From assembly GCA_041690695.1 (NCBI GenBank), contig JBEPVZ010000002.1, positions 1,454-65,453 of the forward strand: 64,000 bases of DNA, written 5' to 3'. Numbering within the stretch: position 1 is the first letter of the stretch; every line of letters begins with the position of its first letter. Below, in pieces: positions 18,138 to 47,949 of the stretch. The translations under genes were made by a program, and so were the position numbers. Source of the DNA: Candidatus Daviesbacteria bacterium. Lineage in GTDB: Bacteria; Patescibacteriota; Microgenomatia; Daviesbacterales; UBA10151. A model generated the notes under the pieces. The model searched no databases. It was not told the DNA's origin and was given only the letters and a program-made list of their open reading frames with translations.

Positions 18138-18920
18138 ATGTCACAACCGCTTTTATCAGTAATTATTCCAGCCTTTAAGCAAGCGAAGACAATTAAGGAA
18201 GATATACTTGCTATTTCAGCGGCGTTAGATCAACTCGGTCTTTCCTATCAAATGATTATTGTCGATGATGGTTCGCCAGATAAGACTTTTCAAAAAGCTC
18301 GTCAAGTTAAAAACTCTCATATTCAAGTCGTTGGTTATCCAGTTAACAAAGGTAAAGGTTATGCCGTCCGGTATGGAATGTCACGAGCAAAAGGGGATTT
18401 AATTGCTTTTATGGATGCTGGAATGGACTTAAATCCAGCCGGAATATCAATGTTACTTGAACACTTCCGATGGTATGATGCGGATATTGTGGTTGGTTCT
18501 AAGCGTCATTTAGCTTCACAAGTTAATTACCCTCCTCTTAGGCGAGTTTACAGCTTTTTTTACCAACTCATGGTTCGCTACTTATTTGGATTAAAGATTA
18601 AAGATACTCAAGTTGGCTTAAAGTTATTTAAAAGGAAAGTCCTCGAAGATGTTTTACCAAGACTTTTAGTTAAAAAGTATGCTTTCGATATTGAGATATT
18701 ATCCGTTGCTAATAAGTTAGGTTATACAAAAATATATGAAGCTCCTGTTCAACTTCGACATCAATTTTCCTCGTCAGTTAACATTAACGAGGTTTTAAAA
18801 ATGTTTAAAGATACCTTAGCGGTCTTTTATAGACTAAGAGTTCGTCACTATTATGACGATGGTAATAAAAGAAGATGGAAGCTCGATCCGGATTTAAACT
18901 TTAGAGTGAACTTAGGATGA
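18138..18920 (+). CDS. polyprenyl-phosphate sugar synthase, DPM1/GtrB/ArnC-like GT2 (soluble form)
   Basis: LLSVIIPAFKQAKTI...MIIVDDGSPDKT...NKGKGYAVRYGM..AKGDLIAFMDAGMDLNP. No C-terminal TM. Confidence 0.6.
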   Translation: MSQPLLSVIIPAFKQAKTIKEDILAISAALDQLGLSYQMIIVDDGSPDKTFQKARQVKNSHIQVVGYPVNKGKGYAVRYGMSRAKGDLIAFMDAGMDLNPAGISMLLEHFRWYDADIVVGSKRHLASQVNYPPLRRVYSFFYQLMVRYLFGLKIKDTQVGLKLFKRKVLEDVLPRLLVKKYAFDIEILSVANKLGYTKIYEAPVQLRHQFSSSVNINEVLKMFKDTLAVFYRLRVRHYYDDGNKRRWKLDPDLNFRVNLG

Positions 18921-20944
18921 AGCCTGTCCCAATTTTAGTTGCTCTGGGACTTTTTTTTATTCTTTGCCTGATGCCGAGCCGAGTTTTGGCTGATCAATCA
19001 AATTCCTTTGTAACAATTGTTAATCCTGTTCGGATATCGACTTACAATAAAGATCCTCAAGCTAGCTTACTAGCTGAGTACTCAGAAGTTCAAAAGCGGT
19101 CACTTCCGGCAACTTGGTTATTAACAGATGATGTTTTAAATAACTCTAGCATGGTCACAACCTTAAAAAGTTTTGATCCGAAGCAGGAGTTCGGAATATT
19201 TTTAGAGATATCACCAGCTTTAGCTAAAGAAGCTCAAGTCGATTATCCTAAATCTGTTCAGTGGTACTTTGCGAATGCTGTTTTTTTAAGTGGTTATAGT
19301 CAAGGTGATCGAAAAAAGTTAATTGATACGGTTTTTAGTGATTTTAAAAACCAATTTGGATTTTATCCCAAAGTGGTTGGTTCCTGGTGGACAGATAGTT
19401 ATTCTTTAAATTATTTACATCAAAAATACCAAATCACAACAAATTTAGGTTTGGCAGATCAATATTCAACTGATGGATATCAAGTTTGGGGGAGTTATTG
19501 GTCGACCGCCTTTTATCCAAGTTTATTAAATGTGGGTATTCCTGCTAATTCTTTAAGCAATAAGCTTGATGTCGTTAATCTAGAGTGGGCGCCACGTGAT
19601 CCATTAAATGGTTATGGACCAGGGGAGGCTAGTAAATATAGTACTCAAGATTATCAAACATTAAATTTGGGTGATGATTATTTCGCCAAATTATTTAATC
19701 TTTATGCCGTATCACATAATAATAGTTTTGGTCAGATAACTGTCGGCTTAGAAGCTGATCTTTCGCCAGAAGTTTTTCAGCAAACTTTTGCTCGCCAACT
19801 TAACTTAATCTCAACGCAGTCGCAAGTCCAGGTGGTTTTAGCTAGCCAATTTGCCAGTTGGTATATTCAGCATTTCCCGAACCTGTCACCGCCTCAGATA
19901 ATTGTTAGTCAAGATTTATTAGGAGGTAATAAACAAGCTATTTGGTATCAAAGTCCAAACTTTAGAGCAGGTTTAACTTATGATCCTTTGACCAATCAAA
20001 CTAAAATTATCGATCTAAGAACTTATCAACCTGAGATTGAGGATCCATATTATTTAACCCCAAATTCGGAGATGAAGTTACATGTAAATACGCCATCTTT
20101 AATTGACTCAGTTAACGTTCCGAATGATGGTTGGTTAATTTCGACAAGCCTTTTAAATTCAATTAATCAAAACGAGTCTGGGCTTAAAATTACTTATCAA
20201 AACGGTCAGACAATTAATATGAGTGATCAAGGTATAAATTTAACTGGCCAATTATCTCAGCCAGTACCTAAAACCATTACTTCCGGAAAAGTTATCAAAA
20301 TAGATAGTGACGGAAAATCATTGTTAATGACACCAGTTTCAATGTGGCTGGCTCCACCAGCTGGTAGGGTCATAAATACTTTTTTGCCAGAATTACCACT
20401 CCTTTTGCGTCAACGACGCGGCGTTATTGAGATTGCTCTGATTGGTGGACTATTAGTAGTCGGCCAACTTCTAATTTTTGGAAAAATAAAAAGAAAAAGG
20501 CGACCTTTTATACTTATATCGAGTTTAACGATTTTATCTCTACCGTTAATCTGGATATTAATTCATAACCGACAATTCATGGTTACACAGGGTGAAGTAG
20601 ATGGTTTATTTAGACTTTCTCAAATGCCTGTCGGTAAAGTTGTAGTTTATGATCATGAGTGTTTAAATTGTCAGTGGCAAACTATATCTAAACCAGCTAT
20701 TTATGCTAATAAGCGTGGCTATGTGGCTGATTTAAGCCATGATCCAATTATTTATAATAAAATTATATTTGAAACTAAATCACGTGCTGAAGGTCGAAAA
20801 GCCTTGGTCGATTTAAAGGCAAAGTATATTTATTTAGCTAAATATGGAAACTATATTGAAACACTACCATTTTCGCCAGGGGACTATAATATAGAGATGA
20901 TTTTTGAAAATGCCAATTGTCAAATTTGGCAAGTAAAGTCTTAA
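18917..20944 (+). CDS. exported, membrane-anchored hypothetical protein with a large N-terminal ectodomain and a Cys-containing C-terminal domain
   Basis: Signal-peptide-like N-terminus (MKPVPILVALGLFFILCLMPSRVLA). A roughly 480-aa soluble domain (..TWLLTDDVL.., WWTDSYSLNYL) and two TMs near residues 500-550. A C-terminal roughly 120 aa carries the CLNC...C...C pattern. Confidence 0.5.
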   Translation: MKPVPILVALGLFFILCLMPSRVLADQSNSFVTIVNPVRISTYNKDPQASLLAEYSEVQKRSLPATWLLTDDVLNNSSMVTTLKSFDPKQEFGIFLEISPALAKEAQVDYPKSVQWYFANAVFLSGYSQGDRKKLIDTVFSDFKNQFGFYPKVVGSWWTDSYSLNYLHQKYQITTNLGLADQYSTDGYQVWGSYWSTAFYPSLLNVGIPANSLSNKLDVVNLEWAPRDPLNGYGPGEASKYSTQDYQTLNLGDDYFAKLFNLYAVSHNNSFGQITVGLEADLSPEVFQQTFARQLNLISTQSQVQVVLASQFASWYIQHFPNLSPPQIIVSQDLLGGNKQAIWYQSPNFRAGLTYDPLTNQTKIIDLRTYQPEIEDPYYLTPNSEMKLHVNTPSLIDSVNVPNDGWLISTSLLNSINQNESGLKITYQNGQTINMSDQGINLTGQLSQPVPKTITSGKVIKIDSDGKSLLMTPVSMWLAPPAGRVINTFLPELPLLLRQRRGVIEIALIGGLLVVGQLLIFGKIKRKRRPFILISSLTILSLPLIWILIHNRQFMVTQGEVDGLFRLSQMPVGKVVVYDHECLNCQWQTISKPAIYANKRGYVADLSHDPIIYNKIIFETKSRAEGRKALVDLKAKYIYLAKYGNYIETLPFSPGDYNIEMIFENANCQIWQVKS

Positions 20945-20953
20945 TAAAAAATC

Positions 20954-22078
20954 ATGAACATATTAATTTTTTCTTGGCGCGATCTAAAGCATCCTCTTTC
21001 TGGAGGAGCTGAGCAAGTTATGCACGAGCATGCTAAAGGCTGGATTGCGGCTGGACATTCGGTAACTTGGTTTTCATCAACTTATAAAGATGCCCCGCAA
21101 AATGAGATTTTAGATGGCATAACAATTTTTCGTAGGGGAGGACAGCTATTAGATGTTCAGGTTCGAGGTTTTATCTGGTATTTATTTGGCAAACACTCAA
21201 AGTTTGATTTAGTTGTTGACCAATTTCATGGGATATCTTTTTTTACGCCTCTTTATGTCAGAGTTAAAAAACTAGCAGTTTTACAAGAGGTTGCTCGCGA
21301 AATTTGGTTAGCTAATTATCTTCCCAAACCTTTTAATTGGATTATTGGTACGATCGGTTATCTTGGTGAACCATTTATCTTTTTACTTTATAAGAATGTA
21401 TCATTTATGGTTGGATCTCAATCAGCTAAAAAAGATTTAACAACTTATGGGATTGCGGGCAATCACATAACTATTATTCCGCACGGGGTTATCATTGAGC
21501 AGCCTGATCTTAAAATAAAAAAAGAAGCTAAAAAAACTATTATTTTTTTAGGAGCTTTACAGCAGGATAAAGGTACATCAGATGCTATTAAAGCCTTTTC
21601 ACTTTTAAAAGATATAAATAATTCTCAACTGTGGATTATTGGACGAGGTAGTATAGATTATACAAACTACTTAAAAAAACTCTGTAAAGACTTAAAGGTT
21701 ATGAATAAAGTTAAATTTTGGGGATTTGTCTCTCAACATCAAAAGTTTGAACTTCTTAGAAGGTCTCATTTATTGGTAAACCCATCTATTCGTGAAGGGT
21801 GGGGGTTAGTTAATATTGAAGCAAATAGTATGGGTATTCCAGTTGTCGCATATAAATCGGCTGGATTAATCGATTCAGTTAAAGATGATGAAAGTGGCGT
21901 TTTTGTAGATAAAAATACCCCCGAGGAATTGGCGAACAAGATTAATCTTCTATTAGACGATAATTCTTTATATAAACGCCTAAGTTTAGGAGCTCTAAAC
22001 TGGAGTAAGCAGTTTAATTGGCAAAAGTCTAAAGAATTAAGCCTAAAATTAATTGAATCACTTACTTCCGAGCAATAA
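20954..22078 (+). CDS. GT4 family glycosyltransferase
   Basis: ILIFSWRDLKHPLSGGAEQVMHEHAKGW...REGWGLVNIEANSMGIPVVAYKSAGLIDSV. Confidence 0.7.
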   Translation: MNILIFSWRDLKHPLSGGAEQVMHEHAKGWIAAGHSVTWFSSTYKDAPQNEILDGITIFRRGGQLLDVQVRGFIWYLFGKHSKFDLVVDQFHGISFFTPLYVRVKKLAVLQEVAREIWLANYLPKPFNWIIGTIGYLGEPFIFLLYKNVSFMVGSQSAKKDLTTYGIAGNHITIIPHGVIIEQPDLKIKKEAKKTIIFLGALQQDKGTSDAIKAFSLLKDINNSQLWIIGRGSIDYTNYLKKLCKDLKVMNKVKFWGFVSQHQKFELLRRSHLLVNPSIREGWGLVNIEANSMGIPVVAYKSAGLIDSVKDDESGVFVDKNTPEELANKINLLLDDNSLYKRLSLGALNWSKQFNWQKSKELSLKLIESLTSEQ

Positions 22079-22817: not shown

Positions 22818-22818
22818 T

Positions 22819-23763: not shown

Positions 23764-23810
23764 AAATGCATTATATAATAAGCTCGATCATTTGCTATGA
23801 TACATACTTA

Positions 23811-24965
23811 ATGAGAATTGGTATTTTAACCCATAATTATCCGCAAACATCAGGCCAGCGCAAAGACGCTGGGACATTTATCTACGACTTTGCGGAAGAG
23901 TTATCAGGTCGAGGTCATAAGATTTACGTTTTTTCCCCAAAGTTTATTGGTAAAAAAGAAGCGTATAAAAAAGTCCCAGTAGAGTGGTTTAACTGGAGTG
24001 GCGGAGATAAAAAATTAGCAAATATTAATTTAAAAAGTAGTTCTGGTTTATTTAGCATTTTTAGTTTGCTCTGGAATGGACAAAATCAATCAATACAGTT
24101 TGCTAAAGATCATAATCTCGATTTTTGCTTAGCATTTTGGTCATTCCCGAGTGGGTTATTTGCTTGGTGGATACATAAACGACTAAAAATTCCCTATGGG
24201 ATTATGACAATGGGTTCAGATATTTTTGTCTATGGCAAAAACCCTTTATTAAATTTTCTAAATACTTATCTGTTAAGGCGAGCAGATATTATTTTTGGAG
24301 ATGGTAAAAAAATATCCGAAGTAACAGCTCGTTTGGCAAAAAAAGAATGTACTTACATCCCGATTATTACCGCCATTAGCTTTAATAATGTTAAACCCTT
24401 GAAAAGATCTAAAAATACGTTTAATTTTTTATATGTTGGCCGACTCGAAAGTGTTAAGGGTCCAGATCTTTTAATTGAGGCCGTCAAAATACTTAGCCAG
24501 ACTAATCCTAATTTTAAAGTTAATATAGTCGGGGATGGGTCAATGTTAGAGGATCTACAAGAAAAGGTTCGTAAGTATAACTTAGGAGATAAAGTCACAC
24601 TTTTAGGAAATATATCGGATAAGAAAAGATTAGCAGCCTTTTATTTATCAGCTGATTGTTTAATCGTTCCTTCGCGGAGCGAGAGTCTATCAATGGTTAT
24701 TCCTGAAGCCATAAAAGCTGACCTACCCGTAATTGCGAGCAATGTCGGAGATATGGGTGAGTTTGTTAGAAAAAATAAAATTGGTTATATCTTTCCCTCA
24801 CAAAAAACTAATATATTGGCGAGTAAGATGTTACTTGCCATGAAAGAAGGTCATAATTTTAAAAAAAGACGAAAAGAAAATCTAAGAAAACTAAGTGCAA
24901 TATTTAGCATTGAAAATTGTGTCGATATTTTTTTAAAGCAATTAAAATTAATAAATAAAGAATGA
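23811..24965 (+). CDS. GT4 family glycosyltransferase
   Basis: MRIGILTHNYPQ...DAGTFIYDFAEELSGRGHKIYVF and a C-terminal SESLSMVIPEAIKADLPVIASNVGDMGEFV. The track ORF starts at 23766, but the ATG at 23811 is the likelier start. Confidence 0.65.
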   Translation: MRIGILTHNYPQTSGQRKDAGTFIYDFAEELSGRGHKIYVFSPKFIGKKEAYKKVPVEWFNWSGGDKKLANINLKSSSGLFSIFSLLWNGQNQSIQFAKDHNLDFCLAFWSFPSGLFAWWIHKRLKIPYGIMTMGSDIFVYGKNPLLNFLNTYLLRRADIIFGDGKKISEVTARLAKKECTYIPIITAISFNNVKPLKRSKNTFNFLYVGRLESVKGPDLLIEAVKILSQTNPNFKVNIVGDGSMLEDLQEKVRKYNLGDKVTLLGNISDKKRLAAFYLSADCLIVPSRSESLSMVIPEAIKADLPVIASNVGDMGEFVRKNKIGYIFPSQKTNILASKMLLAMKEGHNFKKRRKENLRKLSAIFSIENCVDIFLKQLKLINKE

Positions 24966-27106
24966 TAAAGTTTAAGTTTAATATAAAAATAACTGCAATT
25001 ATTTTAGGAGTTATTTTTTTTATTTTAGGAATAATTACGTTACCAGATTACGGAATTAATTGGGACACGATTAATCATCTCCCCAGAGGCCAGGCATATT
25101 TACACTATATGTTAACAGGTCGAAAGGACTATAAAGATTTACCGAACTTCTTTAATGGTTGGCAAGTCCCGGGACAATGGTACTGGCAAAATCCGAGCAG
25201 TCTAGGTATTGATACAAATATTCCGTATAACAATATTCCTAAAAGGAGCTTGTATCAGTTAGATAGCCAAGATTTTCAATATAATATGAAAACTGATGGT
25301 TATGGGCATCCTCCGACGAGTGATATTATATCGGCCCTTTTTAATACCGTTCTATTTCAACATCTTCATTGGATTAATGATATTGATTCGTATCACGTTT
25401 ATGGAATTTTATTAGCAGCGGCTTTAGTCGGATTAATCTTTTGGTGGGTTTCAAAAGTTTATGGTCTATTTGCAGGATTTATAGCTGCAATATCTTTATC
25501 TCTATATCCGTTATTTTGGTCAGAATCACATTTTAATACTGAAAAAGATGTTCCGGAAACAGTCTATTGGTCTTTCATGTTTTTTGCTATCTGGCGGGGT
25601 ATCACAACTAAAAGTTGGAAGTGGATTCTAACTTCAGGAGTATTTTTTGGATTAGCACTAGGAACAAAATTTAATATTTTGTTTGCCGGTCCAATTATTT
25701 TGGTCTGGCTCTCGGCATATCTAATCACACAATACTTGAATTCGAAAACAAAAAAAATATCTGTCATCAAAAAATGTATTAGAAGTAATATCAAGTTGAT
25801 TTTAGCCTGCTTAATAGCTCCAATAATTGGTTTTGTTATTTTTGTTGGAACTTGGCCATATCTTTGGACCAATACTTTGAATGGCCTTCAAACGGTCGTG
25901 AGCTTTTATAAAGATATTGGAACTTCGCCATCTATCGATTCTCGGTTTATTTGGCATTTTGGATTAAATCTTTATCCTTCAAAGTGGATTGTTTATACCA
26001 CTCCTTTAATTATTCTTGGATTAAGCCTGTTTGGGTTTGTTGTTGCTATTAGCCGGGTAAGACGAGATAAAGATCAAGTTAGCTTCCTTTTTTTGCTTTG
26101 GCTGTTAATACCGATCGTTCGGGTGACCTTGCCCGGTACGGATATTTATGGAGGAGTCAGACAAATTATGGAATATATTCCTGCACTGGCTATTCTTTCG
26201 GGTCTTGGAGCTTATCAGGTAAAAAAGATGCTTGAGGTTATTTTAAAGAAGTTTTTTATAAAAACTTCTTTTGCCTCGAATTTATCAGGCTTACTTATTA
26301 TTTTAATGTTTATTCCAATTACTCTAAAATTAATTCAAATTCACCCAAATGAAAATGTTTATTTTAATCCTCTTATCGAAGGTTTAGCTGGTGCTAAATC
26401 TAAAGATATCCCTTATTGGGGTGATTCTTTTGGTGCTGCGTATCGCCAAGGGGTTGTTTGGCTAAATCAGCATGCTGAGAAAAACGCTAAGTTAGTTTAT
26501 GCTAATGAATTAATTCCAAATATTCCAAGAATTTGGTTGAGAACTGATTTAGATCTTCAAAATATTTATCGAAGTGGTTATCTTAGAGAAGGTGAGTACG
26601 CTATTACTTTAACCTATCAAGGTACTAATACGCGTTCATATTATGATATGTATTTATCGACTTTTTTGGTACCAGTTTATGAGGCTAAAGTGGATGGTGT
26701 TTCCGTTTTAAGCATTTGGAAAAACGATGATATGCATTTAAAACGTCCTTATACTGAAAAGGCTCTCCTAAATATTCAGATAAGTAAAAATAATAATGAT
26801 TTGATTTTGAATCTAGGAGCAAATTATCCACTTTCTCGATTAGTTGCAACTTACGGTTCTTCTGATTGTTCTGATTTAAAAACTGGGGTCGTTTCGATCT
26901 CACCAAATGATGTTAACTGGGTAAACTTACCCGGAGTTTTACCTGATGATTGGCAAATAACTGCTTTGGGACAACAACCAAAAGGAGGTAATTTTATTGA
27001 ACCTTTTGCTGGTCAGCAGGCTCAATATATAAAATTGTCGGTTGATTCTGCAAAGACCTGTTTAATGAAAAATCTCACCAGTGCGAAGGTTTATGTTTTA
27101 AATTAA
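24962..27106 (+). CDS. large GT-C-type membrane protein with a C-terminal extracytoplasmic domain
   Basis: 714 aa. The N-terminal half has about 11 TMs and a DE/D-rich first loop (YGINWDTINHLPRGQAY). The C-terminal roughly 230 aa are soluble. The stop codon directly abuts the stop of the convergent gene. Confidence 0.5.
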   Translation: MIKFKFNIKITAIILGVIFFILGIITLPDYGINWDTINHLPRGQAYLHYMLTGRKDYKDLPNFFNGWQVPGQWYWQNPSSLGIDTNIPYNNIPKRSLYQLDSQDFQYNMKTDGYGHPPTSDIISALFNTVLFQHLHWINDIDSYHVYGILLAAALVGLIFWWVSKVYGLFAGFIAAISLSLYPLFWSESHFNTEKDVPETVYWSFMFFAIWRGITTKSWKWILTSGVFFGLALGTKFNILFAGPIILVWLSAYLITQYLNSKTKKISVIKKCIRSNIKLILACLIAPIIGFVIFVGTWPYLWTNTLNGLQTVVSFYKDIGTSPSIDSRFIWHFGLNLYPSKWIVYTTPLIILGLSLFGFVVAISRVRRDKDQVSFLFLLWLLIPIVRVTLPGTDIYGGVRQIMEYIPALAILSGLGAYQVKKMLEVILKKFFIKTSFASNLSGLLIILMFIPITLKLIQIHPNENVYFNPLIEGLAGAKSKDIPYWGDSFGAAYRQGVVWLNQHAEKNAKLVYANELIPNIPRIWLRTDLDLQNIYRSGYLREGEYAITLTYQGTNTRSYYDMYLSTFLVPVYEAKVDGVSVLSIWKNDDMHLKRPYTEKALLNIQISKNNNDLILNLGANYPLSRLVATYGSSDCSDLKTGVVSISPNDVNWVNLPGVLPDDWQITALGQQPKGGNFIEPFAGQQAQYIKLSVDSAKTCLMKNLTSAKVYVLN

Positions 27107-28039: not shown

Positions 28040-28113
28040 TTTGGGGTTAAGTATATGAATTCTCTTACACAGTTGCAATCTGCTATTTATTACCGATAAA
28101 ATAACTCAAGTTT

Positions 28114-29939: not shown

Positions 29940-29947
29940 GAATTAAT

Positions 29948-34207: not shown

Positions 34208-34248
34208 ATGACTATTCTTTTGGAATAAAGAAAGGTAAACTTGAAAAA

Positions 34249-36196: not shown

Positions 36197-36206
36197 GTTT
36201 AGAACA

Positions 36207-36950: not shown

Positions 36951-36964
36951 GTGACTTCAAGGCT

Positions 36965-37546
36965 ATGAAACTTAAATATTTCGTCGGGCGGATTATCTTT
37001 AAAGTTCAGGCTGAGTATAAAAAAAGTCAATTAATTGAAGTTGGAAAGTATACCTATGGTCGACCAAAAGTAATTTATTACGGTGGGCCGGGCAAGGTTA
37101 TCGTTGGAAGCTTTTGCTCCATTGCTAAAAATACAACCTTTATTCTGACCGGAGGACATCGTCCGGAATGGATATCTGCGTATCCTTTCCCAAGCTTAAG
37201 TAATATCTGGCCATCTGCAAGAACAATTAAAAACTCAGTTTGTTATAAAGGAAATATTGTTATTGGTCATGATGTCTGGATAGGTTATGGTGCCACTGTC
37301 TTAGAGGGGGTTACGATAGGGGATGGAGCGATTATTGGAGCGATGTCTGTTGTTACAAAAGATGTCGCATCGTATTCTATAGTGGGGGGGAATCCCGCCA
37401 AGTTAATTAGAAAAAGATTTAGCGACCAGCAAATTAAAAAATTGATTAGATTAAAATGGTGGAATTGGCCAACGCGTAAGATTCTAAAAAGTATTCCATT
37501 ACTATGTAATTCAATCGATAATCTTGAGAAGCTGAGCCATGTTTAA
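36965..37546 (+). CDS. hexapeptide-repeat acetyltransferase of the XAT class (Vat/CatB-like)
   Basis: [13 protein letters not shown] matches the XAT HRxDWVSTYPF signature. LbH repeats ([32 protein letters not shown]) and a C-terminal [18 protein letters not shown] motif. The start is taken as ATG 36965; the track ORF from 36878 overlaps the upstream gene. Confidence 0.7.
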
Positions 37547-39158: not shown

Positions 39159-42082
39159 TTATTTTTTTGAAATGGTTTAAATATATTTTGCTACTATGTT
39201 TTTGTCTTACTCCACTAGTCTGGTTTAAGGGCCACCCCTTAGCTATTATTGATGGAGTTGATACCAACTTTCCTTTGAATCCTTTGGTCTGGTTTCTTCG
39301 GCGATTTTATGATTGGAATGATATTGGTAATGCCGGGAGCGACTTCTCTTCTTCTGTTGCCGGATTATTCTTTCATTTTATTCAACTTGTACCTTATCTT
39401 TTAGGATTTAGTCTTCATTGGGTTGAATTAATTAGCTTAATATTTTGGTTTAGTGCAATTGTCTTAGGATCATATTTCTTCGCCCGCGTAATTTTACCCA
39501 AAAATAGTCTAGCACAGCTAATTTTAGTTAGCCTTTATTCTTTTAATATCTATTTATTTAATACTTGGGAGAATGTTAAAGTTTCAAATTTATGTTTAGC
39601 TGCAGTTTTACCTGCCTTTTTAGCTCTTTTGCTTGCATTTGATAAAAGGCTACTTAATTTGTCTCGTTTAATCTTTTTAGCAACATTATTCGCAATTATA
39701 GCTTCTGGTACGGGTATTAATCCGGCTTATTTTTTGACCTTAATTATGGCAATTTTTATTTTAAGCGTTATGAGGCTATTATATGTTCCTCAAAAGCTAG
39801 AGAGAATCTTAATCTTAAAAAGTACATTTTTAGTTTTAGCAATTCTTTTTTTTGTTAACCTATTTTGGATTTTACCAACAATTAACCATTTATTATTTTC
39901 AGGCAATAAACTCACTCAAATTAGTGATATTGGATTTAATGATTGGGTTGATAGTCTGTCAGCGAATACTAGTTTATTAAATACTTTTAGATTCCAAGGA
40001 GCATGGGACTGGTATACGATTGATACTGGGTCGAGCTTACCCCTTTATATTCCATATGCAGTTAGCTATTTTAATCGATTATCCTTTTTAAGTTATAGCT
40101 TTTTATTAACAGGCTTAGCTCTCGTAGCCTATCTTTTTAGAAGGAAAGACCAGGCGGTTTTATATAGTTTTTTGGGGGTAATGGGAGTATTAGCAATCTT
40201 CCTCGGATCTGGTAGCCATCCACCAACTGGTACTTTATTCAATCTGTTAGATCGACATGTGCCTTTTTTCTCGTTTTTTCGCAGCCCTTGGTATATATTT
40301 ACTCCGCTATGGATTTTGGCAGAAGCGGGGTTAATTGCTTTACTCATTTCAAATTTAAAAATAAAATCTTCGAGATGGGCAATCGGATTATTTACTGTTC
40401 TTGTATTGGGGAATATTATTTATTGTTATCCGCTTTGGACCGGTAAAATTTTTCGTCCAAATCGACCAGATGGCTTTTATATAAACTTCCCAAATTATGT
40501 AAATCAATCAGCTAATTGGTTAAATGATAATTATAGTTCGACGAGTCCCCAACGAATCATCGCTTATCCTAATGATGAAATTGAACAGTTCAAGTGGGGA
40601 TATCGAGGAATTGAATCCATTCTTGAGCTTTTTGCTAAAAACGAGGTTTTGTTTGCTTCTATTAATGGTATTCAATCTCCGCTGGATGGTGTCGTGAACT
40701 TATTTTATCAGACTGCTGCAAAAGGCCAAAGGGAGGCTGCTTCTAATTTAGGAGAAAAGCTTAATTTAGGGCTAATCTTTCAAAAGAACGACCAGAGTTC
40801 TCTCTCACAAAAATTACCCGACAATTTTTTAGTGACAAAAGTTACTCAGTTTAATGCTTGGAGCTTCTATAAGTTTCCAAACGCGCTTCAACCTAAAATA
40901 TTTACAGCTACTAATTTAATGGCTAACTATTCGGTTAGCCCGGCCGTGATCGAGCCCTTATCGGTTTTACCGATCGATAGTTTGCTTATAAATCCTCATG
41001 ATCAAGTTGTTGCAGGAATTCCCCAGTCAAGCGATTTTACAGGCCAGGTTATTTTAACGACTAACTCTCAATTAACGGATATGACAGGGGTTAAATCAGT
41101 TGGTCCAGAATTAAACTTTCAACAAAAGGATCTATCTGTTGTTAAATTTAGTTTTAATATTCCGCAAAAAGGTTCATATCAAGTGGTTTTAGATAGATAT
41201 CAGGTCGAGCAGTTTGGAATTGACTTAAATAATAATCTTAAGATAACGCTTGATGATAATGATACCTTCTTACATCCGGATAAAGTAACAGATAGTTTTA
41301 TTTATTTTTCAGATTTAGATTTGAGCGAGGGGAATCATCAATTATCCTTTAATTTGACAGAGTCAAGTCCGATTCTTAACCAAGGCATTTTTAAGTACCA
41401 ACTAGCGACTCTAGACCCGCTATCAAGTTATTTGATTCAATTTGAATATAAATCTGACTATGCTCAAAGTAATCAATTGAAGTTAGAACAATTTAGCCCC
41501 TCATCGCCAGTTCAGTTTGTTAGTAAGCAACTTCCTTTTTCTTCAGATTGGCAGGTTTATAATCAATACTTTACACCAATCCAAACAAATTCAAAATTAA
41601 ATATTGAATTTACCAGTTTGAACACTTTGGGAAGGACGGGCAATAAAGCAATCTATCAAGGGTTAACAGTTAAAAAGGTGTTTTTAAATAACCTGTTTTT
41701 AATTAATAAATCAGATATTAAACCGCTCCAAACTTCAATAATTAATTTTAATCAGGTTTCACCTGTACTTTATACGGGAGAAGCTAAGAACGCAGATCAT
41801 CCCCAACTGCTTGTTTTCTCAGAGAATTATTCACCAAATTGGAAATTAAGTCTTTATGATGATAATGGAGAGTCACTTATTGTTAAGCCGCTTCATTTCA
41901 CAGCCAATAATTATGCAAATGCTTGGTATATCGAAGGAGTTCCTTCGAGCTATCATTTTAAAATTTATTATACTCCTCAAAGTATTTTAAACCTTGGATT
42001 TTTAATTTCAGGTTTAACAGTTCTTATTAGTTTGGTTTTTGCTCTTCTGCAGATTAAAAAACACAAGTTAAGCAAAAAATGA
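39155..42082 (+). CDS. very large membrane protein with YfhO-like architecture (N-terminal TM bundle, large ectodomain, single C-terminal TM anchor)
   Basis: 975 aa. About 13 TMs in the first roughly 430 aa and about 500 aa of hydrophilic domain. A C-terminal TM (GFLISGLTVLISLVFALL) is followed by basic residues KKHKLSKK. Confidence 0.45.
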   Translation: MIIFLKWFKYILLLCFCLTPLVWFKGHPLAIIDGVDTNFPLNPLVWFLRRFYDWNDIGNAGSDFSSSVAGLFFHFIQLVPYLLGFSLHWVELISLIFWFSAIVLGSYFFARVILPKNSLAQLILVSLYSFNIYLFNTWENVKVSNLCLAAVLPAFLALLLAFDKRLLNLSRLIFLATLFAIIASGTGINPAYFLTLIMAIFILSVMRLLYVPQKLERILILKSTFLVLAILFFVNLFWILPTINHLLFSGNKLTQISDIGFNDWVDSLSANTSLLNTFRFQGAWDWYTIDTGSSLPLYIPYAVSYFNRLSFLSYSFLLTGLALVAYLFRRKDQAVLYSFLGVMGVLAIFLGSGSHPPTGTLFNLLDRHVPFFSFFRSPWYIFTPLWILAEAGLIALLISNLKIKSSRWAIGLFTVLVLGNIIYCYPLWTGKIFRPNRPDGFYINFPNYVNQSANWLNDNYSSTSPQRIIAYPNDEIEQFKWGYRGIESILELFAKNEVLFASINGIQSPLDGVVNLFYQTAAKGQREAASNLGEKLNLGLIFQKNDQSSLSQKLPDNFLVTKVTQFNAWSFYKFPNALQPKIFTATNLMANYSVSPAVIEPLSVLPIDSLLINPHDQVVAGIPQSSDFTGQVILTTNSQLTDMTGVKSVGPELNFQQKDLSVVKFSFNIPQKGSYQVVLDRYQVEQFGIDLNNNLKITLDDNDTFLHPDKVTDSFIYFSDLDLSEGNHQLSFNLTESSPILNQGIFKYQLATLDPLSSYLIQFEYKSDYAQSNQLKLEQFSPSSPVQFVSKQLPFSSDWQVYNQYFTPIQTNSKLNIEFTSLNTLGRTGNKAIYQGLTVKKVFLNNLFLINKSDIKPLQTSIINFNQVSPVLYTGEAKNADHPQLLVFSENYSPNWKLSLYDDNGESLIVKPLHFTANNYANAWYIEGVPSSYHFKIYYTPQSILNLGFLISGLTVLISLVFALLQIKKHKLSKK

Positions 42083-42447
42083 TCAAAACTTTTCTAAAAT
42101 CCCTTAATATTTGGAAACCTACAATTGAAGATTGGGCACGAAATCATGTTTTAGGGTTATTTATTTTTAACTTAATTTTAATGTTATTAATATTGCTACA
42201 TTCAGCGGGTTATTTTGCGCCATATCTTGAAATTACAATTAACCTCATTTTCTTTATATGCTTACTTGCCTTAATTTTATTATTAAAAGCTACGAGCAAA
42301 GTTATCTTTATTATTGCGATTGCCTTTTGGATATTTGCGGGAGTACTTAGAATTATTGGAATCGATATTTGGGCAGAGCGAACAGCTATTTATACTTTTG
42401 AGGGTTTTTTAGTAGGGGTCTTTCTCCAAATAATCGAGGATAAATAA
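42079..42447 (+). CDS. small 4-TM membrane protein, GtrA-like in size and topology
   Basis: 122 aa with four hydrophobic helices. It sits between two YfhO-like genes with 4-bp overlaps. No sequence motif confirmed. Confidence 0.4.
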   Translation: MIKTFLKSLNIWKPTIEDWARNHVLGLFIFNLILMLLILLHSAGYFAPYLEITINLIFFICLLALILLLKATSKVIFIIAIAFWIFAGVLRIIGIDIWAERTAIYTFEGFLVGVFLQIIEDK

Positions 42448-42468
42448 GTCTAATGATTTATTTTTTTA

Positions 42469-45123
42469 TTGCGGGTAGTGAATCTTTTAGCTACAATTGA
42501 GATCACCAAAATGAAAAAATGGATTCTAGTAATTATCCCATTCCTAATTATTTTTCAATCTTTTTTTAGTGGCTCACATCTAGTATGGGGCGATTCACCA
42601 TACTTTTATCCTGAAAATTTAAAAGAATTATTCTCTTTGCCGCAAGCATGGGATAATCGTACTGATAATTTTGGTGGGCCGCAGAACTTAGTTTTATGGT
42701 TATATTTTCCAACTTTTTTGTACGGTCTCATTAACCACTTTTTAGGATTAAGTAATGATTGGTTAATTAGAATAATTTTTTACTTTCCGGCTACGATTCT
42801 TGGTATAAGTGGCTGTTATTTCTTTTTAAAGCGCTATACCCAAAATACTATCTCCCAACTTTTCGGAAGTTTAATCTATTTATTTAATAGCTATTTTTTA
42901 TTATTGATCGATGGAGGACAAGTTGGTGTTGCGCTCGCATATGGATTATTTCCATGGGTGGTATATTTAGGATTAAGTTTTTTAAACAAAAATAAACTCC
43001 AAAGTTATCTGGCGAGTTTAATGGCTCTAATTCTCATAACGAATATTGATTTAAGAGTTGCGATATTGTCGGTTGGGATGATTATCGTATTAAGCCTGTT
43101 TGATTTTAAAATTCCAAAGCGTTGTATCTTAAAAGGTCTGACACTTTTATTTGTTCCAATTATTTTAATAGATGCTTTTTGGCTTATACCACTTCTTCAG
43201 GCGACGGTATCATCACAGATTATCGCTATTCCACTTGTACAAGACTTAAAAACGACGACATTACTCGATAGTTTAGTACTTTTTCAACCACATTTCCCTT
43301 TGAATGAATTTGGGCATATCTTTCCGATCCCATTTTATTATTTTGTCTTACCGCTGTTGTTAATTATTGGTGGACTATTAAAAAAGGATAATAAGTATTT
43401 ACTCATTTTATTTTTGTGTTTCGCCTTTTTAGCCAAGGGTTCTACCTTTCCGTTTGGCAAAATTTATGATTTTTTGGTAACTAAACTTCCATTCGGAATT
43501 GCATTTCGTGATTCAACTAAGTTTTATATTCCTTTAATAATGTTGGCCAGTATTCTATTAGCATTTTTTGTTGATTATCTTAAAAAGTTAAAATATTGTG
43601 GAGTTTATTTAGCGCTGTTATATATTTATTTACTTATTCTAATTTACCCAAGCTTAATCGGAGGTCTGACAGGAGTTTTAAGTAAAAATACCACCAATAC
43701 TGATCAAGACACCATGATCTATCAATTGCTAAAGACCAAAAGTGATGTTAGAAGTTTATGGTTTCCTGAAAAATTACCGTTAGCTTTTAGTAGCCAGCAA
43801 GTTCCGGCTATTTCGGCGGATAGCTTGTATTTAGAAAGACCATTTGCATCCATGATCGATGGCACATATGATTTATACAACTATCTAAATAGTCCTCAAC
43901 TTATTCCCTGGCTTAAATTAGTTGGCACTCAGTATTTATTCTTTCCGGAAAATGATCGTAAAAAAACTTGGTCAAATCAAGATGTCTTAGAGAGACAGCA
44001 GTTTATAAGCTTTGTTGATAAAGTATTCTCCACCGAGCAAAGGCTTAGTTTAAATTATCCGGCTTTTAAATTAGATCAGGTTGCATCTCACTTTTTTACG
44101 GTTCCTAAAGTTTATTTTGTGCTGGGCGGGGAAGAGCTTTATAATCAGATTTTTAGAGATAAACCTAATTTTAATTTAGCTAATCAAGGTTTTGTCTTTT
44201 TAGAAGATCCTCGGTTAAACCTTAATCAGTTAAATATGATTAAACAGGGTGATGCTTCAACAATTATATTGGGTAATAAGACTCGAGATGACTTGGCGAT
44301 GGTTTACCTTAACCAAAGCTTATTGAGTGACAAAGCTGTTGTAACTAAAAAGTGGGGTCAAAGATCTGGGGCAGAATATTTAGATTGGAAAAGTGAGTTA
44401 TTAAAAGGTGGAGTTAGAACATATGATTTTGCCAATTCAAGCTCAGTTTATTTTTCTTCAATTAATGGTGAGCTACTGAGTTACAAAAGTAATTTGAGAG
44501 AGGGAGATTATGAGTTGGCGATAAGAAATACTTCAGCTTCAGATAGCGCTAAGTTAAGATTAGAAATTAACAATCAATCTTTCGATGTGAAGGCAAAAAG
44601 TTCAAATCAGTTTACTTGGCAAATAATTGGGCCGATTCATTTATCAGGTAATCAAAAATTAGATATTACCAATCTAGGTGGTTTTCAGGCTATTAATGGA
44701 GTGGCAATTATTAATCAAGATAGTTTGAGTTGGGCTAGAAGCCAAGCAGATCAGCTCCTCAGCCGTTTGCCGCCAGCTCAACTAACAGATATTGAGGCAA
44801 GCTCCGATAAATTTGGTTTGGCTGATGATCAATTTATTAATCTTACGGAACATCGACTTAATTTAAGATCTTCAGATAATTGGTTAATTATGACCGATCA
44901 TTATGATTCTGGTTGGAAGATCAATCCAAGTTCAATCAATTTACCTGGATATGCCATGTTTAATGCCATTTATTTAAGTTCGCACACAGCAGACCAGCTG
45001 ATTGATTTAAAATATCAGCCTCAAAGGACCGTTGATCTTGGTTTAAGAGTATCTTTATTGTCAGCTGTCGTTTTACTATTATGTTTAGGTGGATATTATT
45101 TAAAAAAAAGACATGAATATTAG
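42469..45123 (+). CDS. very large membrane protein with YfhO-like architecture
   Basis: 884 aa. N-terminal TM bundle, roughly 400-aa ectodomain, and a C-terminal TM (LLSAVVLLLCLGGYYL) followed by KKRHEY. The true start may be the ATG at 42511 (MKKWILVII). Confidence 0.45.
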   Translation: MRVVNLLATIEITKMKKWILVIIPFLIIFQSFFSGSHLVWGDSPYFYPENLKELFSLPQAWDNRTDNFGGPQNLVLWLYFPTFLYGLINHFLGLSNDWLIRIIFYFPATILGISGCYFFLKRYTQNTISQLFGSLIYLFNSYFLLLIDGGQVGVALAYGLFPWVVYLGLSFLNKNKLQSYLASLMALILITNIDLRVAILSVGMIIVLSLFDFKIPKRCILKGLTLLFVPIILIDAFWLIPLLQATVSSQIIAIPLVQDLKTTTLLDSLVLFQPHFPLNEFGHIFPIPFYYFVLPLLLIIGGLLKKDNKYLLILFLCFAFLAKGSTFPFGKIYDFLVTKLPFGIAFRDSTKFYIPLIMLASILLAFFVDYLKKLKYCGVYLALLYIYLLILIYPSLIGGLTGVLSKNTTNTDQDTMIYQLLKTKSDVRSLWFPEKLPLAFSSQQVPAISADSLYLERPFASMIDGTYDLYNYLNSPQLIPWLKLVGTQYLFFPENDRKKTWSNQDVLERQQFISFVDKVFSTEQRLSLNYPAFKLDQVASHFFTVPKVYFVLGGEELYNQIFRDKPNFNLANQGFVFLEDPRLNLNQLNMIKQGDASTIILGNKTRDDLAMVYLNQSLLSDKAVVTKKWGQRSGAEYLDWKSELLKGGVRTYDFANSSSVYFSSINGELLSYKSNLREGDYELAIRNTSASDSAKLRLEINNQSFDVKAKSSNQFTWQIIGPIHLSGNQKLDITNLGGFQAINGVAIINQDSLSWARSQADQLLSRLPPAQLTDIEASSDKFGLADDQFINLTEHRLNLRSSDNWLIMTDHYDSGWKINPSSINLPGYAMFNAIYLSSHTADQLIDLKYQPQRTVDLGLRVSLLSAVVLLLCLGGYYLKKRHEY

Positions 45124-46375
45124 TCAGATTTTAAAAACTAAAACTATTTCCCATATTTCAATTAGTACTTTCGGGACTCTTTTAAATGGAATTTTGGGTG
45201 CATTATTTTTTATTATCTTAGCCAAAGCTTTGGGCCCTTCAGATTTTGGGTTATTTGCTGTGGCTATCGCAACCTTAACTTTAATCTCGGATATTGCTGA
45301 CTCGGGAATTAATACAGGACTAATTAATTTTATAAGTAGGCATTTATCATCAAATACTGATCAAGCCTATCGTTTCTTAAAACTCGGTTTAGAAATCAAG
45401 ATAATAATCTGGTTAATCATTTTGCCAATTGGGTGGTTACTGGCACCTTTCCTGTGTCAGACTATTTTTCAAAAACAGGAATTAATTAATCCAATTCGGG
45501 TGATGATGATCGGGGTTGGAGGAGCACTTTTATTCTCCTTTGCAACCAATGCCCTCCAAGCTCTTCAGAAATTTTGGGCATGGAGTTTTCTAAATATTCT
45601 AAGTAATGGGTTACGCTTAATCCTAATTGGTTATCTTGTCTTAATTGGTCGACTTAGTCTCCCTAATGTTTTGTGGGTTTATGTGGGTATTTTATTCCTG
45701 GGGTTTTTTATAGGCTTGAAGTTTCTACCTTTAAGATTCTTAAAAGTTACTAATGAAAAATCAGTTGGCAGAGAATTCTTTCACTATAATAAATGGATTG
45801 CTTTATTTACGATTTTAGCAGCACTTTCTTCAAGATTAGATACTTTTTTAACGGCCCGCTTAGTCACAACTGCTCAACTTGGAATCTATTCAGTGGCTGT
45901 TCAATTATCTTCGGCAGTTCCACAACTAGTTTTTGCGATAGCAGCGGCGATTGCGCCTAAACTGGCTAGTTTTACGACTGATCAACAAGCTAAAAGTTAT
46001 TTAATGAAACTTCAGCTACTTGTTATTGGTATTGCCTTACTTGGAACTGTTAGTTTCCCAATCGCTTACTACTTCTTCCCTTGGCTTGGTCCAGTTTATC
46101 AAGCAAGTATTATGCCATTTATTATTTTAATGGTGGCTCAATTAATATTCTTAATTGCCATCCCGACTCATCAAGTGATCTTCTATTACTTTCAGAAACC
46201 TAACTTCTTTTTTAAGGTCTCATTAATTAGATTTTTTCTAACCCTTGGAGCAGGTTACTTCTTAATTTTAAATTATGGAATTATTGGGGCAGCTTTAGCG
46301 GTTCTAATTGGTAGTTTATCGGATTTCATTTTACCCGCGGTTTGGGTTATTTATCGATTCAATAGACGTAAATAA
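45113..46375 (+). CDS. Wzx-like oligosaccharide flippase (MOP superfamily), second copy
   Basis: 420 aa with about 12 TMs. The N-terminus LLNGILGALFFIILAKALGPSDFGLFAVAIA is Wzx-like. Confidence 0.55.
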   Translation: MNISQILKTKTISHISISTFGTLLNGILGALFFIILAKALGPSDFGLFAVAIATLTLISDIADSGINTGLINFISRHLSSNTDQAYRFLKLGLEIKIIIWLIILPIGWLLAPFLCQTIFQKQELINPIRVMMIGVGGALLFSFATNALQALQKFWAWSFLNILSNGLRLILIGYLVLIGRLSLPNVLWVYVGILFLGFFIGLKFLPLRFLKVTNEKSVGREFFHYNKWIALFTILAALSSRLDTFLTARLVTTAQLGIYSVAVQLSSAVPQLVFAIAAAIAPKLASFTTDQQAKSYLMKLQLLVIGIALLGTVSFPIAYYFFPWLGPVYQASIMPFIILMVAQLIFLIAIPTHQVIFYYFQKPNFFFKVSLIRFFLTLGAGYFLILNYGIIGAALAVLIGSLSDFILPAVWVIYRFNRRK

Positions 46376-47196: not shown

Positions 47197-47199
47197 AAT

Positions 47200-47949
47200 A
47201 TGTACCGCGGAAAATCAGTTTCAATTGCAATCGCGACTTACCGCGAAAAAAACTCGATCAGGCAAGTTATTGATAATTTTTTTGAGACTGGTTTTGTTGA
47301 TGAAGTTATTGTGGTTAACAATAATGCTGAAAAAGGTACTGACCAGGAAGTTAAAAAAACTAAGGCTAAAATAATCTATGAGACCAGGCAAGGATATGGT
47401 TATGCCTTTCAAGCGGCTATTAAATCGGCCACTGGAGACTATGTTGTTGTTTGTGAACCAGATGGGACATTTTTAGCAAAAGATTTAGAACGATTTTTAA
47501 TTTATGCTGAAGATTTCGAAGTAGTTTTAGGAACAAGGACAAGCCAGATCGGTTCGTTATCTGGTCGGGGAATGGGTCTGGCTCGAAAGTTTGCTAATGT
47601 TATTGAGGCAAAAACGATAGAAGTTTTATTTAATAGTTTTGCTTTAACCGATGTTGGTTGTGCCTATAAATTATTTAGACGTCAAGCTTTAAAAAAGATT
47701 ATTCCTTTGTGGAAAAATGAAAAGTCCCCTTTATTTAATACTGAATTAATTTTATTAACGGTCAGCCTAAAACTAAAGTTCGTTGAAATTCCAATCTCTT
47801 ATAATAAGCGTATTGGAACCTCATCAATTGTTGGTAAACGCTACCAAGTTATCAAATGGGCTTTTGTTATCCAATTTTATATTTTTATATTTTGGCTAAA
47901 ATGGTTGATTTTAAAAATGGAGAAGACTAGTAAAAGATCTAAAATTTAA
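47200..47949 (+). CDS. GT2 glycosyltransferase, DPM1/GtrB-like with a C-terminal TM (probable polyprenyl-phosphate sugar synthase)
   Basis: VSIAIATYREKNSI...VIVVNNNAEKGT...QGYGYAFQAAIKSATGDYVVVCEPDGTF. A C-terminal hydrophobic helix (WAFVIQFYIFIFWLKWLIL). Its stop shares a TTAA with the stop of the convergent gene. Confidence 0.55.
   Translation: MYRGKSVSIAIATYREKNSIRQVIDNFFETGFVDEVIVVNNNAEKGTDQEVKKTKAKIIYETRQGYGYAFQAAIKSATGDYVVVCEPDGTFLAKDLERFLIYAEDFEVVLGTRTSQIGSLSGRGMGLARKFANVIEAKTIEVLFNSFALTDVGCAYKLFRRQALKKIIPLWKNEKSPLFNTELILLTVSLKLKFVEIPISYNKRIGTSSIVGKRYQVIKWAFVIQFYIFIFWLKWLILKMEKTSKRSKI

Follow-up and report, generated by a model that had tools for sequence, protein, structure and literature searches.

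Genes at the locus

The DNA studied here (the window) is a stretch of 64,000 nucleotides from a Candidatus Daviesbacteria bacterium (contig JBEPVZ010000002.1), and it is part of a surface-glycan island of a Microgenomates bacterium of the Candidate Phyla Radiation (CPR). Its GC content is 31–37% and it is coding nearly throughout, on the plus strand, with nearly all of the 64 kb given to glycosylation. Using Pfam scans and all-against-all BLAST, we counted 16 glycosyltransferases of family 2 (GT2), 7 of family 4 (GT4), 4 S-adenosylmethionine (SAM) methyltransferases, 2 hexapeptide acyltransferases and 2 Wzx-type flippases of the multidrug/oligosaccharidyl-lipid/polysaccharide (MOP) superfamily. 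Approximately 15 further proteins are glycosyltransferases of the GT-C fold class (GT-C), fewer than the 18 or so named in an original prediction made from the letters of the window. That prediction had also proposed that three of the GT2 genes encode DPM1/GtrB/ArnC-type synthases of lipid-linked monosaccharides. All three open reading frames (ORFs), here called P1, P2 and P3, were confirmed:

18138..18920, plus strand: P1, candidate polyprenyl-phosphate glycosyltransferase of 260 amino acids (aa) with no transmembrane (TM) helix (Pfam, NCBIfam, family profile, AlphaFold2 and Foldseek)
27107..28039, minus strand: P2, polyprenyl-phosphate glycosyltransferase of the GtrB/ArnC type, 310 aa (alignments to PDB, NCBIfam and E. 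coli ArnC)
47200..47949, plus strand: P3, candidate DPM1/AglJ-like polyprenyl-phosphate glycosyltransferase, 249 aa (Pfam, NCBIfam and Foldseek)

The P2 reading frame extends from 27107 as far as a TTG at 28078; with the ATG at 28039 as start, it gives the 310-aa product carried in public databases (P0241). The nearest homologues of all three proteins are found in Microgenomates (Woesebacteria, Gottesmanbacteria, Levybacteria and Daviesbacteria).

P1, P2 and P3 fit the polyprenyl-phosphate glycosyltransferase class

All three proteins match Pfam Glycos_transf_2 (PF00535), the family against which the original prediction was to be checked, over the whole 168-position model: P1 with an E-value of 6e-24 (positions 1–167), P2 with 2e-30 (1–166) and P3 with 4e-19 (1–167). 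When all 16 window GT2s were compared by phmmer with E. coli ArnC, YfdH (GtrB), WcaA and WcaE, only these three aligned with ArnC past approximately residue 110, P2 over aa 14–306, P1 over aa 6–169 and P3 over aa 5–204. Their best NCBIfam matches are polyprenyl-phosphate sugar synthases, represented by the equivalog models for ArnC (NF007986), PgfS (NF047588), PpgS (NF058614), AglJ (TIGR04182) and a dolichyl-phosphate (Dol-P) hexose transferase (NF041391). The best NCBIfam match of the other GT2s is generic or oligosaccharide-building, and their alignments to ArnC, PgfS, AglJ or PpgS cover the N-terminal half only (9 of 13 scanned). Likewise, the nearest solved structures of P1, P2 and P3 are polyprenyl-phosphate glycosyltransferases, namely ArnC, GtrB and an archaeal Dol-P-mannose synthase (DPMS). 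The DPM1/GtrB/ArnC-type assignment is thus borne out, and neither NCBIfam nor the ArnC alignments grouped the three with processive or oligosaccharide-building GT2s, the outcome that the original prediction had named as contradicting it.

The structure of ArnC published in 2025 (PMC12690121) offers a set of residues for comparison. Metal is bound by the second Asp and the Gln of the motif DADLQ, whose first Asp is proposed to act as the base; the acceptor phosphate is held by R128, R137 and S141 (R117, R131 and S135 in the Pyrococcus furiosus DPMS, PfDPMS) and the donor phosphate by R205 (R202 in PfDPMS). The family is further marked by a pair of juxtamembrane helices, a pair of TM helices and a C-terminal beta-hairpin packed on the neighbouring protomer (PMC12690121). 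HMMER and MAFFT alignments identified counterparts of the acceptor ligands as K122/R135/S139 in P1 and R113/R129/N133 in P3, all six invariant within their own families, while the same positions in P2 are occupied by Lys, then Ser, Gly or Thr with an adjacent Lys, then Ser. P2 has the canonical DADLQ motif and the donor-phosphate Arg. In the other two proteins the first acidic residue of the DXD motif is retained, as D93 in P1 and E86 in P3. Simple Kyte-Doolittle hydropathy scans, used here for all TM counts, gave three styles of anchoring, with no TM helix in P1, two in P2 and one in P3. Altogether, fold, alignment extent and acceptor-phosphate residues support the placement of P1, P2 and P3 in the polyprenyl-phosphate glycosyltransferase class.

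Two further GT2 proteins were considered as a fourth synthase and rejected. The product of 52607..53446 matches PF00535 over positions 1–166 and has one C-terminal TM segment, and that of 35207..36196 has two C-terminal TM segments; for both, the NCBIfam and ArnC alignments are confined to the N-terminal half.

P2 and its neighbourhood

P2 is related to ArnC and GtrB over its full length. In the PDB it matched ArnC (9hwj, 1.6e-38) and Synechocystis GtrB (5ekp, 4e-35) over aa 14–306, including DADLQ and both TM helices, and Salmonella ArnC was matched too. The NCBIfam ArnC model aligned at 1.9e-48 over positions 4–293 of 316, with PgfS second-best, and the E. coli queries ArnC and YfdH gave 5.7e-43 and 1e-26. 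The two TM segments lie at approximately aa 248–300, and the C-terminal hallmark that had been noticed on this minus-strand gene, LLIFGLLLMIVGVQLISTGLLAEMM, aligns with the second TM helix of ArnC.

P2 lies among the following genes:

24962..27106, plus strand: PMT_2 GT-C of 714 aa, convergent with P2 and abutting it (Pfam PMT_2, 3e-09)
28114..29939, plus strand: two GT2 genes starting at 28114 and 28833 (275 aa and 368 aa), divergent from P2 (Pfam)
31982..34207, plus strand: PMT_2/PMT GT-C of 741 aa in the P2 neighbourhood (Pfam PMT_2, 2e-13; PMT, 1.5e-10)

The P2 family is 65–77% identical across CPR lineages. In three related loci (L008, L009 and L010), the P2 orthologue is always divergent from a GT2 pair of 275–328 aa and 340–349 aa. 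A PMT_2 protein of 665–760 aa lies within three genes of it in L008 and L010; in L009 this protein (734 aa, cut by the end of the locus) lies farther off. The conserved partners of P2 are therefore the two divergent GT2s, methyltransferases and a PMT_2 GT-C of approximately 700 aa. A flavin amine-oxidase/NAD_binding_8 protein (29948..31249, plus strand; Pfam 2e-26) lies in the window between the divergent GT2 pair and a methyltransferase followed by the 31982 GT-C, and is not found at the equivalent position in these three loci.

P1 is a TM-less variant in a conserved gene block

P1 had been described as soluble. It has no TM segment, as that description holds, but it is probably peripheral, given the two juxtamembrane helices predicted in its model. 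Aligned with ArnC, GtrB or P2, P1 shows a clean deletion of exactly the TM1–TM2 hairpin, with the juxtamembrane regions retained. What is left is a GT-A domain with predicted helices at aa 133–150 and 216–235, which align with the juxtamembrane regions of ArnC, and a strongly conserved C-terminal tail that is modelled as a beta-hairpin (aa 247–258). Judging from this model, P1 would attach to the membrane by the two amphipathic helices, perhaps together with a partner protein; their hydrophobic moments are approximately 0.43, a value that did not set juxtamembrane helices apart from ordinary surface helices. The existence of TM-less family members, among which we count human DPM1 and PpgS, means that the lack of a TM helix does not exclude P1 from the class.

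The best PDB sequence match of P1 is PfDPMS (6.5e-17, aa 6–204). A profile of its 34-sequence family found DPMS (1e-20), GtrB (4.5e-15) and ArnC (1e-13), and these alone pass approximately profile position 128; chondroitin synthase, WrtF, TarS and GpgS match over the generic N-terminal half only. PgfS is the best NCBIfam match, and PpgS aligned over aa 8–206. An AlphaFold2 model built from the family alignment (mean predicted local distance difference test (pLDDT) score 86.8) was compared with the PDB by Foldseek, and ranks 1–17 were all ArnC, PfDPMS or GtrB, with template-modelling scores (TM-scores) of 0.66–0.74. The metal motif of P1, D93-A-G95-M-D97, is invariant in the family; relative to DADLQ, it retains the first Asp but has Gly in place of the second and Asp in place of the Gln.

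Relatives of P1 were found in at least 575 stretches in a scan of one genome per species, and the gene contexts were counted in the best 80 loci. P1 is part of a block that is conserved across these 80 Patescibacteria species genomes, with the order PMT_2 (two or three genes), GT2, GT4, PIG-V-like GT-C, Wzx, P1, GT4; the order is complete in many of the 80 loci, and the counterpart of the block in the window is 9013..22078:

9013..16862, plus strand: three PMT_2 GT-Cs (9013, 10677 and 12245), a GT2 (13866), a GT4 (14729) and a PIG-V/MptA_B-like GT-C (15744), forming the 5' part of the block (Pfam)
16859..18097, plus strand: Wzx-like MOP flippase of 412 aa, directly upstream of P1 (Pfam Polysacc_synt, 3e-17)
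20954..22078, plus strand: GT4, last gene of the conserved block (BLAST cluster with GT4 genes; NCBIfam generic GT4 matches only)

The gene immediately preceding the P1 orthologue is a Wzx homologue in 59 of the 80 loci, and the one immediately following it is a GT4 in 37; another GT4 lies two to three genes upstream. The equivalent of 15744 in L002 and L003 carries PF26314 (MptA_B_family). For the conserved block and the GT-C partners, NCBIfam gave generic matches or none, and no clue to sugar or acceptor.

In the window, P1 and the last GT4 are separated by a gene for a 675-aa protein (18917..20944, plus strand), with a 4-nt overlap at the stop codon of P1. The protein carries one TM helix at its N-terminus, two more at approximately aa 503–550 and only a weak match to Pfam DUF3863, and its gene follows P1 in just 3 of the 80 relatives, which points to a lineage-specific insertion in the conserved block. 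In about a dozen related genomes (L023, L024, L026, L035, L037, L049, L060, L065, L070 and L083–L085), a second, shorter P1-like GT2 of 227–250 aa (343 aa in L049) is encoded ahead of P1, in most cases with the PIG-V-like GT-C or a GT4 on one side and Wzx on the other. This gene, which is absent from the window, may be an additional lipid-sugar synthase paralogue. Many contigs with Microgenomates-type genes are titled 'uncultured Gammaproteobacteria bacterium' (binchicken metagenome-assembled genomes, for example L016, L019, L022 and L024), and among the loci of P1 relatives one is titled Bathyarchaeia and one Chloroflexia; such titles look mislabelled or mis-binned.

P3 is linked to a convergent GT-C gene

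The C-terminal TM segment that had been predicted for P3 was found as a single segment starting at approximately aa 220. The best NCBIfam matches of P3 are AglJ (5e-22) and the haloarchaeal Dol-P hexose transferase (3e-15), over approximately 200 residues. Its metal motif, E86-P-D88-G-T, is invariant in the family, and the donor-phosphate Arg is near-invariant (K203, R204). In an AlphaFold2 model, likewise built from the family alignment (mean pLDDT 79.3), helices at aa 127–144 (low pLDDT) and 214–248 aligned with the juxtamembrane regions of ArnC, and ranks 1–11 of the Foldseek comparison with the PDB were ArnC, DPMS or GtrB.

The genes around P3 are as follows:

39155..45123, plus strand: two large GT-C-like proteins, of 975 aa (39155, weak AftD-type GT-C) and 884 aa (42469, PTPS_related/YfhO-like) (Pfam)
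42079..42447, plus strand: 122-aa protein with four TM helices, after the 975-aa GT-C (ORF scan; orthologues in L005 and L006)
45113..46375, plus strand: second Wzx-like MOP flippase, 420 aa, two genes upstream of P3 (Pfam Polysacc_synt, 6e-23; NCBIfam MOP flippase match weak)
47946..49415, minus strand: PMT_2 GT-C of 489 aa, convergent with P3 and overlapping it by 4 nt (Pfam PMT_2, 5.7e-11; loop-1 motif TPDEEY)

In all three long contigs examined (L005, L006 and L007), the P3 orthologue is followed by a convergent, slightly overlapping PMT_2 GT-C of approximately 490 aa, 43–49% identical to 47946..49415, while the other flanks vary. A metagenome scan extended this to the closest P3 clade (63–77% identity), where 12 of 13 informative loci had a convergent polytopic gene downstream, 10 of them orthologues of 47946. 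Across the P3 family, a neighbour with at least 7 TM helices stands immediately beside the P3-family gene in 36 of 50 loci against 46% expected from the local background (binomial p = 2e-4), a statistic weakened by the loci coming from related genomes that are not phylogenetically independent. These results suggest that the 47946..49415 GT-C is the likely consumer of the P3 product. The L005 orthologue within the 39155..45123 pair carries PF11847 (35% identity, 1015 aligned positions).

Distant relatives of P3 (L117–L165; for example L121 5714..6640 and L133 5762..6685) have a different arrangement. The downstream gene encodes not a GT-C but a SAM methyltransferase of approximately 307 aa with 2–3 predicted TM helices, homologous to window 49448..50263; a polytopic protein usually lies just upstream, and many loci add a second methyltransferase-like protein (approximately 420 aa) downstream. 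This hints at methylation being linked to the lipid-sugar pathway.

Proposed pathway and alternatives

Starting from the family and fold assignments, the residue correspondences and the conserved gene linkage, all of them direct observations, we consider it probable that P1, P2 and P3 are inverting GT2 polyprenyl-phosphate glycosyltransferases whose lipid-linked sugars are flipped and then used as donors by the approximately 15 GT-C enzymes. On the cytoplasmic face, each synthase would move one sugar from a nucleotide-diphosphate sugar to polyprenyl phosphate, probably undecaprenyl phosphate. The resulting polyprenyl-phosphate sugars would be flipped across the membrane, for which the Wzx-type MOP proteins by P1 and P3 or the four-TM protein at 42079 are candidates, and the GT-C enzymes would take them up as donors outside. 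We infer the activity, the lipid, the sugars, the flippase and the donor–consumer pairs; several distinct donor sugars are plausible. The claim that lipid-linked donors feed the GT-C enzymes gains support from the synthase–GT-C linkage being conserved in other genomes. The 'modular Gtr-like decoration systems' foreseen alongside it hold in part: there is a GtrB-like synthase with an adjacent GT-C, but GtrA is missing and P1 belongs to a conserved biosynthetic block, not to a decoration module.

None of the Pfam-scanned window ORFs matched the GtrA family (PF04138), and since no GtrA-family flippase is present, P1, P2 and P3 are not literal Gtr cassettes. The 42079..42447 protein, the product of the only small polytopic ORF, is GtrA-sized, but it is not a GtrA member and matched no Pfam family. 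Its orthologues in L005 and L006 (1e-27 to 1e-35) adjoin the counterpart of the large GT-C, and the one in L005 immediately precedes the P3 orthologue. A role as flippase or accessory subunit is speculative. A three-component system with a protein of the multidrug and toxic compound extrusion (MATE)/MOP type proposed as its flippase provides a precedent for the Wzx candidates (PMC11127046).

Phosphoglycosyl transferases (PF00953, PF02397) were not detected in the window by Pfam, nor by phmmer with WecA and WcaJ, although phmmer with E. coli queries is insensitive, an ArnT query having also missed the window PMT_2 proteins. Either the initiating enzyme is encoded elsewhere in the genome, or the substrate lengthened by the cytoplasmic glycosyltransferases is not an undecaprenyl-diphosphate (Und-PP) sugar. 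The latter would be the case under archaeal-style priming, in which the lipid-linked sugar made by P1 and/or P3 is a primer that GT4 and GT2 enzymes extend, Wzx flips and a GT-C transfers en bloc. Haloferax AglJ, AglG, AglI, AglE and AglB are said to work in this manner, with the primer extended as a monophosphate-linked oligosaccharide and transferred en bloc. Priming would explain two Wzx proteins and 23 cytoplasmic glycosyltransferases (16 GT2, 7 GT4) with no detected phosphoglycosyl transferase, and it agrees with AglJ being the best NCBIfam match of P3, with P3 lying two genes from a Wzx and adjoining a GT2, and with the Wzx and GT4 genes that flank P1. However, the phosphoglycosyl transferase may simply lie beyond the 64 kb, the phmmer negative carries little weight for the reason given, the close association of P3 with one PMT_2 GT-C better fits a donor and its consumer, and en-bloc transfer from monophosphate-linked oligosaccharides is not known outside some Archaea. 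We therefore regard priming as rather unlikely and prefer direct use of the lipid-linked sugars by GT-C enzymes.

Several observations weigh against the preferred pathway. The NCBIfam scores are far under the curated cut-offs, for P2 165 against 529 (ArnC) and 131 against 500 (PgfS), for P3 79 against 325 (AglJ) and 56 against 375 (Dol-P hexose transferase), and for P1 60 against 500 (PgfS) and 59 against 370 (PpgS); because all three fall under the equivalog cut-offs, sugar specificity is not transferable, and on sequence grounds we take the proteins to be relatives, not orthologues, of the characterised enzymes. Searches by phmmer with E. coli YfdG, ArnE and ArnF, again of low sensitivity, gave no match, either within the window or among 89 related loci. 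In P2, the Ser, Gly or Thr with its adjacent Lys stands at the position of ArnC R137. The P3 family profile gave weak, mostly N-terminal PDB matches, with ArnC the only one beyond the N-terminal half, so that structure prediction was required to classify P3, and the region of juxtamembrane helix 1 in that model has a pLDDT of approximately 50. GpgS and MpgS, soluble GT-A enzymes with phosphoglycerate acceptors, are close behind in the structural rankings; together with WrtF, they come after ArnC, DPMS and GtrB in all three Foldseek lists. In P1, the second Asp of the DXD motif is missing, with G95 invariant in its place, ArnC R205 has no conserved counterpart in the family, there is no TM helix, and Wzx and GT4 neighbours are typical of Und-PP-oligosaccharide pathways.

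These properties of P1 would also suit an ordinary peripheral GT2 working at the cytoplasmic face, where an Und-PP-linked repeat unit or another glycolipid would receive the sugar before export by the adjacent Wzx, so that the acceptor of P1 is not polyprenyl phosphate. The conservation of the Wzx and GT4 neighbourhood and the presence of the GT2 enzyme WrtF, whose acceptor is an Und-PP-linked trisaccharide, among the structural matches (TM-score 0.63) point the same way. Yet the sequence matches of P1 past the N-terminal half are to polyprenyl-phosphate glycosyltransferases only, the alignments of WrtF, chondroitin synthase and WcaA end at approximately aa 110, no member of the P1 family departs from the acceptor-phosphate triad, and the top 17 structural matches have E-values 4–5 orders of magnitude better than WrtF. 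An Und-PP-linked or other glycolipid acceptor is improbable on this evidence. A third reading makes P1 a soluble enzyme like GpgS and MpgS that forms a sugar-phosphoglycerate, or a comparable glycosyltransferase for small molecules, found in the island by chance. It was considered for the structural resemblance of P1 to these enzymes and rejected as highly implausible: GpgS sequence matches are weak (approximately 5e-6) and cover aa 6–100 only, and the strictly conserved envelope-glycosylation synteny of P1 speaks against a cytosolic metabolite role.

With P1 taken as a polyprenyl-phosphate glycosyltransferase, analogy allows a further, tentative and somewhat doubtful proposal. The block may encode a previously undescribed extramembrane glycopolymer or lipoglycan pathway analogous to mycobacterial lipomannan synthesis, in which P1 would be a GtrB/ArnC derivative that lacks the TM hairpin, carries DxGxD and is a fixed partner of a Wzx-type MOP flippase instead of GtrA. 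A synthase–flippase complex could then channel the polyprenyl-phosphate sugar to the GT-C enzymes, or P1 could prime a monophosphate-linked oligosaccharide in the manner of AglJ. In the literature on CPR and Microgenomates GT-C proteins and mannosyltransferases, we found no paper describing this cluster.

Other genes of the island

The total of approximately 15 GT-C proteins is made up of three groups. Nine proteins match Pfam PMT_2 (1466, 9013, 10677, 12245, 24962, 31982, 47946 on the minus strand, 50260 and 53410), and the D-E pair after TM1 is kept in seven of them. Three more (322, 37539 and 55896) were matched at 1e-6 to 1e-10 by a local hidden Markov model (HMM) made from these nine, and three match other GT-C families, namely 15744 (PIG-V), 39155 (AftD-type, weakly) and 42469 (PTPS_related/YfhO-like). 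The proteins of 3216..4553 and 62330..63778 (weak Wzy_C) are polytopic and stand outside this count. Features in the remainder of the window are:

322..1473, plus strand: GT-C-like protein (local HMM, 9e-11)
1466..3136, plus strand: PMT_2 GT-C (Pfam PMT_2, 2e-18)
37539..39158, plus strand: polytopic protein of 539 aa, PMT_2-like by local profile only (local HMM, 1.3e-6 over aa 50–394; no Pfam match)
50260..57449, plus strand: PMT_2 GT-Cs 50260 and 53410 and PMT_2-like 55896, with interspersed GT4 and GT2 genes (Pfam; local HMM, 1.6e-7 for 55896)

The glycosylation island is broken at 59525..60120 by a minus-strand toxin–antitoxin pair, the toxin being of the PemK/MazF family (Pfam 1.5e-10) and the antitoxin MazE-like (2e-4).

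Significance for CPR surface biology

CPR bacteria (Patescibacteria) are tiny, mostly uncultivated and live attached to other cells, and their surface chemistry is little known. The three synthases imply that lipid-linked monosaccharides would be the donors for much of the glycan of this bacterium, with assembly or decoration taking place outside the membrane. A GT2 synthase that supplies a GT-C enzyme is textbook logic, and the finding mostly confirms what annotation would suggest. What goes beyond annotation is a TM-less P1 with a family-wide DxGxD motif, the fixed position of P1 by Wzx in a Microgenomates block, and the prospect of three synthases supplying approximately 15 GT-C enzymes within a reduced genome. 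The P1 block is a defined target for work on a core envelope polymer of Microgenomates, and P1, as a compact TM-less variant of the ArnC/GtrB class, is probably more tractable.

Comparison with known systems

P2 resembles the ArnC/ArnT and Gtr systems of Enterobacteria and their phages most clearly. It shares with ArnC and GtrB the order of DADLQ-bearing GT-A domain, juxtamembrane helices, TM helix pair and C-terminal tail, and a GT-C gene abuts it, just as arnT follows arnC and gtrC follows gtrB. Adjoining GT-C genes are a likeness to Gtr systems at both loci, with 24962..27106 beside P2 and 47946..49415 overlapping P3 in a conserved pairing. In contrast to ArnC and GtrB systems, the window has neither GtrA nor a small flippase of the ArnE/F type, and no genes of the 4-amino-4-deoxy-L-arabinose pathway.

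P3 recalls the DPMS/PMT pairs of P. furiosus and yeast, in being partnered by a GT-C of the PMT_2 family whose loop carries a D-E motif. Both P3 and yeast Dpm1 have one TM helix, at the C-terminus. Sequence identity to DPMS is no more than 17–27%, however, P3 has ExD and P1 has DxGxD as metal motif instead of DADLQ, and the lipid here is presumably a bacterial polyprenol.

Mycobacterial Ppm1 and PpgS, together with PimE, MptA/B/C, Emb and Aft, offer the closest likeness for an arrangement in which few polyprenyl-phosphate sugar synthases would serve many GT-C enzymes that make or lengthen a polymer outside the membrane, the mycobacterial products being lipomannan, lipoarabinomannan and arabinogalactan. 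The Ppm1 catalytic domain and PpgS are TM-less, like P1. The P1 block has GT4 genes, a GT-C of the PIG-V/MptA_B family and PMT_2 GT-Cs, and the 975-aa protein weakly matches AftD. On the other side, there is no orthology (PpgS, 59 against 370), no phosphatidylinositol or decaprenyl pathway genes were seen, and a Wzx-type flippase lies in the P1 block.

The Gram-positive systems CsbB(GtlA)/GtcA/YfhO(GtlB) and streptococcal PgfS represent a GtrB-like GT2 combined with a GT-C for extracytoplasmic glycosylation of wall polymers. PgfS is the best NCBIfam match of P1 and the second-best of P2, and the 884-aa protein is PTPS_related/YfhO-like; the differences are that the window has no GtcA/GtrA member and that the scores are far under the equivalog cut-offs. 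Wzx-like AglR, in the AglD/AglR/AglS system of Haloferax volcanii, has reportedly been proposed as a flippase of polyprenyl-phosphate sugars. In the ORF15/ORF14/ORF12 system of Citrobacter youngae, the MATE protein ORF14 is the proposed flippase (PMC11127046), to which the Wzx proteins by P1 and P3 would correspond, although the synthase there is a phosphoribosyl transferase and not a GT2. By analogy, then, the nearest known systems would be ArnC/ArnT and GtrB/GtrC for P2, DPMS/PMT and CsbB/YfhO-type pairs for P3, and the mycobacterial logic of Ppm1/PpgS with multiple GT-C enzymes for the P1 block.

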